DNA from: Escherichia coli
GTDB taxonomy: Bacteria; Pseudomonadota; Gammaproteobacteria; Enterobacterales; Enterobacteriaceae
Assembly: GCF_041886205.1 (NCBI RefSeq)
Contig: NZ_CP169029.1
DNA length: 64,000 nt
Strand: one strand, 5' to 3'
Under the pieces are notes generated by a model. The model was given only the letters and a program-made list of their open reading frames with translations, did no database searches and was not told the DNA's origin. Positions 5,304 to 5,596 of the stretch are shown here, piece after piece (the stretch's first letter is position 1; every line of letters begins with the position of its first letter). Position numbers and translations under genes: made by a program.

Positions 5304-5596
5304 TCCTGGCACCTCTTTTGTTATCAATCACTAAAGAGTGTGACAGAAATATGACATTTTTCCGGGAACAGGTTCGCAAAATGGCTTGTTGAATGCCTGT
5401 TTTTCTATATACATCTTTAAAAACAGGCAAGGTTTGACGCAAACTATGCCTGATTAGCCCCCTGCCTCGCGTACGCCGCTGATGATTACACCTGTGGCTA
5501 AACAGAATATCTGCGGCGTTACCAATACAGAGGCAATATTTACCAATAAAAAAGTGTGAGACTAATAACAATGGTTTTTAGCATATGCCTTTGCCA

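Follow-up and report, generated by a model that had tools for sequence, protein, structure and literature searches.

The perfect inverted repeat between yccE and agp of Escherichia coli is best explained as one part of a module at the 3' end of yccE, in which a putative Rho-independent terminator hairpin (hairpin A, 5455..5424 on the minus strand) shares an arm and its U-tract with the repeat, and the repeat itself is an overlapping pairing that would have no function. We give this reading a probability of about one half. Three segments can be distinguished in the order of yccE transcription, i.e., segment 1 (CAGGCA..GUUUG, 5455..5443), segment 2 (CAAAC..UGCCUG followed by UUUUU, 5439..5419) and segment 3 (AAAAACAGGCA, 5404..5394). 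Segments 1 and 2 would pair across a loop of 3 nt with the U5 directly after them, a layout typical of Rho-independent terminators, and hairpin A would end the yccE transcripts at about 5419-5423 and keep transcription out of agp. The palindrome would be the alternative pairing of segment 2, which carries the 3' arm and the U-tract of the terminator, with segment 3. Segment 3 would be made only after RNA polymerase has left the termination point and therefore could not modulate the terminator in cis; most likely it is an incidental or template-switch-generated complement without a function of its own.

The inverted repeat and its terminator scores

The window, i.e., the whole 64-kb stretch of E. 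coli DNA that was analysed, carries the repeat 168 nt 3' of the stop codon of yccE (5597..6853, minus strand) and upstream of agp, which encodes glucose-1-phosphatase (4062..5303, minus strand). The sequence-only reading had placed a perfect 10-bp repeat at 5395-5428 between these two genes, and both the repeat and its setting were borne out: the arms GCCTGTTTTT (5395-5404) and AAAAACAGGC (5419-5428) are present, the flanks match yccE and agp of E. coli, and the pairing actually runs one base further. The full arms are 100% complementary over 11 bp (5394-5404 and 5419-5429) and are separated by an AT-rich spacer of 14 nt (5405..5418), which forms the loop. The left arm reads TGCCTGTTTTT on the plus strand (5394..5404) and AAAAACAGGCA on the minus strand, where it is the downstream arm with respect to the sense direction of both genes; the right arm reads AAAAACAGGCA on the plus strand (5419..5429) and UGCCUG-UUUUU in minus-strand RNA. 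The RNA hairpin has a folding energy of -13.0 kcal/mol on the minus strand and -12.3 kcal/mol on the plus strand (z-scores -3.8 and -3.6), and the hairpin formed as DNA has about -10 kcal/mol. All five pairs adjoining the loop are A-U and the GC pairs are at the base of the stem, so the A/T runs that had been described on either side of the stem (T5 and A5) lie inside it, beside the loop.

The window holds perfect 11-bp inverted repeats with a loop of at most 20 nt at 5 sites; dinucleotide shuffles lead one to expect 0.25, and the shuffle expectation for 10-bp arms is 1.2 per window. Of the 5,426 complete E. coli genomes, 5,380 match the 401 bases around the repeat, and the annotated genes on the two sides are yccE and agp; the 85-nt segment carrying the repeat was found in about 5,394-5,399 E. 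coli genomes at a median of 1 place per genome. A repeated element (REP/BIME, ERIC or similar) is excluded by this single copy per genome. A cruciform-forming inverted repeat is excluded as well, since the 14-bp spacer is outside the 0-8 bp criterion for cruciforms (Miura et al. 2018; PMC6060812). The Rfam search of 4800-6100, at E values up to 10, returned chance matches to snoRNA, CRISPR and miRNA models only, none with E < 1.

An intrinsic terminator requires a U-run directly 3' of its stem. The palindrome was scored on both strands with a d'Aubenton-Carafa-type d-score including a T-tract term, and five other long perfect inverted repeats of the same window served as the comparison set. 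Using the 3' tails TTCAACAAGCC (minus strand) and AGGTTTGACGC (plus strand), the palindrome reached d-scores of -52.9 (minus) and -76.4 (plus) with T-tract terms of 1.72 and 0.53, respectively, while the comparison repeats at 4031, 29217, 39552, 42774 and 55256 scored +19 to +28 on one strand. The bases after the stem are UUCAACAAG (minus strand) and AGGUUUGAC (plus strand), and neither strand has a U-run there because the T and A runs flank the loop. The palindrome also differs from intrinsic terminators by its A/U pairs beside the loop and by its loop of 14 nt, as compared to about 3-8 nt, and it lacks a short GC-closed loop. It had been proposed that the palindrome is a bidirectional terminator insulating agp, and it does resemble one in its symmetry, its A-run and T-run and its location between genes; its RNA hairpin is stable on both strands, and it sits between two co-directional genes. 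However, bidirectional terminators are built as A-tract, GC stem-loop and U-tract, and in the palindrome this order is reversed, with the GC pairs on the outside and the T and A runs bordering the loop. Termination on the plus strand is not called for because yccE and agp run in the same direction, and 3' ends at the palindrome are absent from curated Term-seq data. We consider it extremely unlikely that the palindrome hairpin itself is an intrinsic terminator.

Other hairpins of the window were also recorded. The repeat at 4031-4055 is a strong GC-rich hairpin between the convergent yccJ and agp genes with d-scores of +27.7 on the plus strand versus -26.8 on the minus strand; its T-run is found only on the plus strand, so agp has no obvious U-tract terminator on its own strand. 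Perfect inverted repeats of at least 10 bp that do not score as terminators are located at 8347-8374, 18556-18583, 21211-21246, 27055-27083 and 35055-35084, and the one at 8347 (TTGCCGGATG...CATCCGGCAA) looks REP-like.

Hairpin A and the 3' flank of yccE

Hairpin A (CAGGCA-ua-GUUUG-cgu-CAAAC-cu-UGCCUG, 5455..5424, minus strand) folds with -13.6 kcal/mol and consists of 11 pairs, a 3-nt loop and a 2x2 internal loop. The U5 tract directly 3' of it (5423..5419, minus strand; MG1655 1065465-1065469) is the predicted 3' end of the yccE transcript. The 3' arm of hairpin A (TGCCTG) together with its U-tract (T5) is the upstream arm of the palindrome, and the two hairpins are mutually exclusive because UGCCUG is common to both. 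In an exhaustive scan of both strands of 5290-5640, hairpin A with T5 was the top terminator-like site (d = -5.6); the next best site on the minus strand had d = -38, and a weak plus-strand hairpin at 5369-5399, which precedes the other T5 run and shares bases with the CRP-like site described below, had d = -17.8. The T-tract term of hairpin A was 3.76, similar to those of the canonical terminators in the window. A consensus promoter and terminator scan of 5200-5700 gave no calls on either strand; hairpin A was missed there because its internal loop hides the stem from the method. Hairpin A is like the Rho-independent terminators of E. coli in its 3-nt loop, the GC pairs at the base of its stem, the U5 directly after the stem and its position after a coding sequence, but it differs from canonical ones by the 2x2 internal loop and by a d-score of -5.6 to -9.3, as compared to +19 to +28. 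With a d-score slightly below zero, the internal loop and only five U residues, it is marginal as a terminator, and we regard it as a marginal, one-directional candidate intrinsic terminator of yccE.

The curated Term-seq table of Adams 2021 (LB and M63) has no 3' end at MG1655 10654xx/10655xx, and yccE is H-NS-silenced in those conditions, so this absence is uninformative on the terminator. The tables of Ettwiller 2016 gave no match in the yccE-agp intergenic region. The yccE gene has been described as silenced by H-NS, inducible by MxiE in Shigella and absent from phylogroup B2; in S. flexneri MxiE induces yccE 46-fold, and the table of induced genes does not list agp (PMC9769918). That agp is missing from the induced genes while yccE is 46-fold up is weak evidence of insulation. 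The insulation proposed in the sequence-only reading thus survives in part: a stop of yccE transcription before agp is plausible, but the palindrome is not that stop, and the overlapping hairpin A is the candidate.

The yccE segment has a GC content of about 34%, versus about 52% in its flanks, and the repeat lies at the transition. A homologue search showed that the YccE family is confined to E. coli (83-98% protein identity), and a deep comparison of the 3' flank is therefore impossible. B2 strains retain only the last 102 nt of yccE. The 3' flank of the gene contains a second inverted repeat, composed of ACGCCGC[A/T/C]GAT at 5473-5483 and ATCAGCGGCGT at 5509-5519 with a loop of 25 nt, which pairs perfectly in some alleles and has mismatches in those of the window, K-12 and O157; no U-run comes after it.

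Two exclusive hairpins with a common segment (1+2 versus 2+3) could also form an attenuator-like device that acts on read-through from yccE into agp or on the stability of that RNA. The two energies are nearly equal (-13.6 and -13.0 kcal/mol), UGCCUG takes part in both pairings, and the full-length minimum-free-energy fold favours the palindrome hairpin over hairpin A. Attenuators of the trp-leader type likewise have three segments of which the middle one pairs either way with similar energies. But in those systems the competing partner is upstream and forms first, whereas in the yccE flank it lies downstream of the U-tract and is absent when termination is decided. Attenuators also have a leader ORF in a 5' leader, and the yccE element is in a 3' flank without leader ORF or leader peptide, ligand-binding fold, Rfam match or covariation. 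Such a switch is very improbable. We see an equally slight chance that the three segments act as a device in another way, in which AAAAACAGGCA re-pairs with the 3' arm and U-tract of the terminator in read-through RNA, in antisense RNA or as a DNA hairpin, or else marks the boundary of the H-NS island by the agp promoter. Re-pairing of this kind would govern the amount of yccE transcription that gets into agp on induction of yccE, as by MxiE in Shigella.

The agp promoter and the distribution of the repeat

The transcription start site (TSS) of agp is at 5330 on the minus strand (MG1655 1065558; SMRT-Cappable-seq, coordinates transferred), 27 nt upstream of the ATG, and b1002 was mapped as a single-gene operon (SMRT-Cappable-seq Supplementary Data 2, PMC6131387). 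An extended -10 element, TGTCACACT, can be read from the sequence at 5345..5337 (minus strand), and it is overlapped by the Pho box TGTCATATTTCTGTCACA (5339..5356, minus strand), which is conserved across genera. Further upstream is a CRP-like site, TGCGA-N6-TCCCG (5360..5381, minus strand), centred at about -40.5 from the TSS; the assignment to CRP is our inference from the motif. A ChIP-seq peak of PhoB has been reported at MG1655 1065537 with the motif AGTCATATTTCTGTCACA, and agp was about 2-fold higher in a phoB deletion (PMC10294691). The CRP-like site, the Pho box, the extended -10 element and the TSS, i.e., the working parts of the promoter, are all within a block of 85 nt that is conserved across Enterobacteriaceae, and the CRP-like site marks the upstream edge of this block, separate from the repeat. 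Of the two Pho half-sites, TGTCAT in the window allele and AGTCAT in K-12, the former is the better. Across about 80 enterobacterial species, the block at 5337-5381 has the form of a CRP-like TTTG(C/A)GA-N6-TTCCCGG and a Pho box TGTCATAAATCTGTCACA overlapping the extended -10 element.

The repeat spans -64 to -99 from the agp TSS with its centre at -81.5, and about 60 bp separate that centre from the PhoB site downstream. Upstream activators can act from about -81.5. The palindrome could then be an E. coli-specific operator or activator site of agp, or a boundary site for H-NS, Fis or IHF; its perfect symmetry in the window, the invariance of its inner 8+8 bp among alleles and its place at the GC-content transition of the yccE island are compatible with such a role. 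Like the PhoB box and the CRP-like site it is symmetric and upstream of agp, but those operators lie at 5381..5337, and the palindrome is 13 nt further upstream, is found in E. coli only and matches neither consensus by eye. Its half-sites have a centre-to-centre distance of 25 bp, an unusual spacing for a dimeric regulator, and its outer positions vary on one arm only. The sole ChIP peak found in the literature for the agp promoter is that of PhoB at the Pho box, and the literature searched on yccE (Fis/cbpA, sigma-32 ChIP, Cpx) and on the agp region makes no mention of a site at the repeat. A promoter in the AT-rich loop was also considered and is unsupported, with no consensus matches there and the one TSS recovered from SMRT-Cappable-seq located downstream at 5330.

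The comparison with other species and plasmids is decisive for the relation of the repeat to the agp promoter. In other Escherichia, homology to the agp upstream region begins only at about 5381-5385, and the place of yccE is taken by other genes, e.g., one for a 488-aa membrane protein, or, in E. albertii, by unrelated ORFs. A further 75 or so enterobacterial species keep the CRP-like site and the Pho box and nothing upstream of them, and none of these species has a comparable repeat at the same position. The copies on IncF plasmids, which carry a truncated agp-like pseudogene, keep the agp promoter, and their homology ends at 5381. The edge of the conserved block at about 5381 is thus 13 nt short of the palindrome. 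The repeat is restricted to E. coli, is single-copy and lies outside the region conserved with agp, and the block is kept without it in other Escherichia, the approximately 75 species and the plasmids. Because homology stops at about 5381 in all three, the palindrome, judged by this distribution, goes with yccE and not with agp. The proposal of a protein-binding palindrome in the agp promoter is not supported, the documented site being the PhoB box, and we consider a protein site at the repeat improbable.

Several observations concern the slot upstream of agp in these relatives. The cryptic clades carry there an ORF for the 488-aa protein, which is membrane transporter-like. There are 855 plasmid matches, pMTY13064_IncF among them, and many E. 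coli plasmids have a truncated and frameshifted agp-like histidine phosphatase pseudogene with about 80 nt of the agp promoter at 83-90% identity. At 16 loci of Enterobacter, Lelliottia, Raoultella and Leclercia, a near-perfect palindrome, GGTTTTATTATAAAACC, was seen about 110-125 nt upstream of the agp ATG. With TATAAT on the opposite strand, it probably serves a divergent neighbour as promoter or operator, and its sequence position is unrelated to that of the E. coli repeat.

Variation among E. coli alleles

No more than 633 of the 5,426 complete E. coli genomes (at most 12%) have a 40-nt palindrome segment identical to that of the window, and 11 distinct E. coli alleles were aligned. The palindrome is 11 bp long in four of them, 10 bp in three, 9 bp in one and 8 bp in three; K-12 has 10 bp and a G.U pair, the MRSN346647 type 9 bp and a G.U pair, and O157 and AH25 only 8 bp. 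CCTGTTTTT of the right arm and AAAAACAG of the left arm are unchanged in all 11 alleles; the inner 8+8 bp are invariant, with constant T5 and A5 runs and a constant CTG/CAG. The outer three positions of the downstream arm are GCA, GCG, GTT or CCG, and the outer TGC of the upstream arm is constant except for TAC in AH25 and ET791; no change of an outer pair is compensated among the 11 alleles. In the loop, 7 of 14 columns vary among alleles, and a 2-nt deletion is present in O157, AH25 and ET791. Variable columns make up 4 of 22 in the palindrome versus 33-50% in its neighbours and 5-11% in the agp promoter, a comparison of related alleles that is only suggestive.

Nine of the 11 alleles keep hairpin A intact (-9 to -13.6 kcal/mol). 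Its energy is -13.6 kcal/mol in the six alleles whose stem is standard, K-12 and O157 among them, -13.0 in the B2 alleles through re-pairing of the inner stem, and -9.2 in E300010, where a C-to-U change gives a G.U pair. In the allele with a 13-nt deletion it is a plain 6-bp stem with a 5-nt loop followed by T5, also at -9.2 kcal/mol. In AH25 and ET791, three disruptive changes destroy it (-3.8 kcal/mol) and yccE is intact. The palindrome hairpin falls to about -6 kcal/mol in O157, AH25 and ET791; in the O157 type it has -6.2 while hairpin A stays at -13.6. The partner specific to the palindrome varies at its outer three positions, and the TGCCTG and T5 common to both hairpins are nearly invariant. 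Covariation tests of both hairpins over the 11 alleles found zero double-sided changes, with values no better than those of shuffles.

The 13-nt deletion is recurrent (INSC1002 and one further locus); it removes window positions 5431-5443 to leave CAGGCA-TAGTT-TGCCTG and then T5, and the 11-bp palindrome is kept perfect. The strain TW01221 has lost yccE by a 1,521-bp deletion with TGAA microhomology (MG1655 1063950-1065470), whose right end is in the palindrome loop (about 5418), so that hairpin A, T5 and the upstream arm are gone. This deletion also takes the MxiE-box promoter region of yccE, and the cbpA regulatory region now adjoins the agp promoter.

These data also allow a neutral reading, in which neither hairpin is functional and the 3' flank of yccE is drifting, AT-rich, H-NS-silenced and horizontally acquired DNA. 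The palindrome would have been born by chance or by a template-switch (quasipalindrome) mutation and would persist because the E. coli alleles are young. The absence of covariation for both structures agrees with this, as do the degenerate hairpins next to an intact yccE in AH25 and ET791, the silencing and low GC content of yccE, its loss in B2 strains and TW01221, and the small share of genomes with the perfect palindrome. Against it, chance would supply only 0.25 perfect 11-bp repeats per 64 kb, T5, A5 and CTG/CAG are invariant while 33-50% of the neighbouring columns vary, and hairpin A with T5 survives both the 13-nt deletion and the re-pairing of the inner stem in B2. We hold such a relic to be rather unlikely. 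The low expectation also touches the terminator module that we prefer, since pure chance is unlikely to place a perfect 11-bp complement 14 nt past a terminator, and, as its inner 8 bp are invariant, segment 3 may have a function.

The region is an ordinary, unannotated terminator-type region of a silenced accessory gene. For the annotation of the agp promoter, this means that the flagged palindrome is not part of it. The reading assigns a probable, predicted 3' end signal to the H-NS-silenced yccE, which matters little beyond annotation. More generally, a long perfect inverted repeat can arise as a by-product of an adjacent terminator hairpin and need not be a functional stem.
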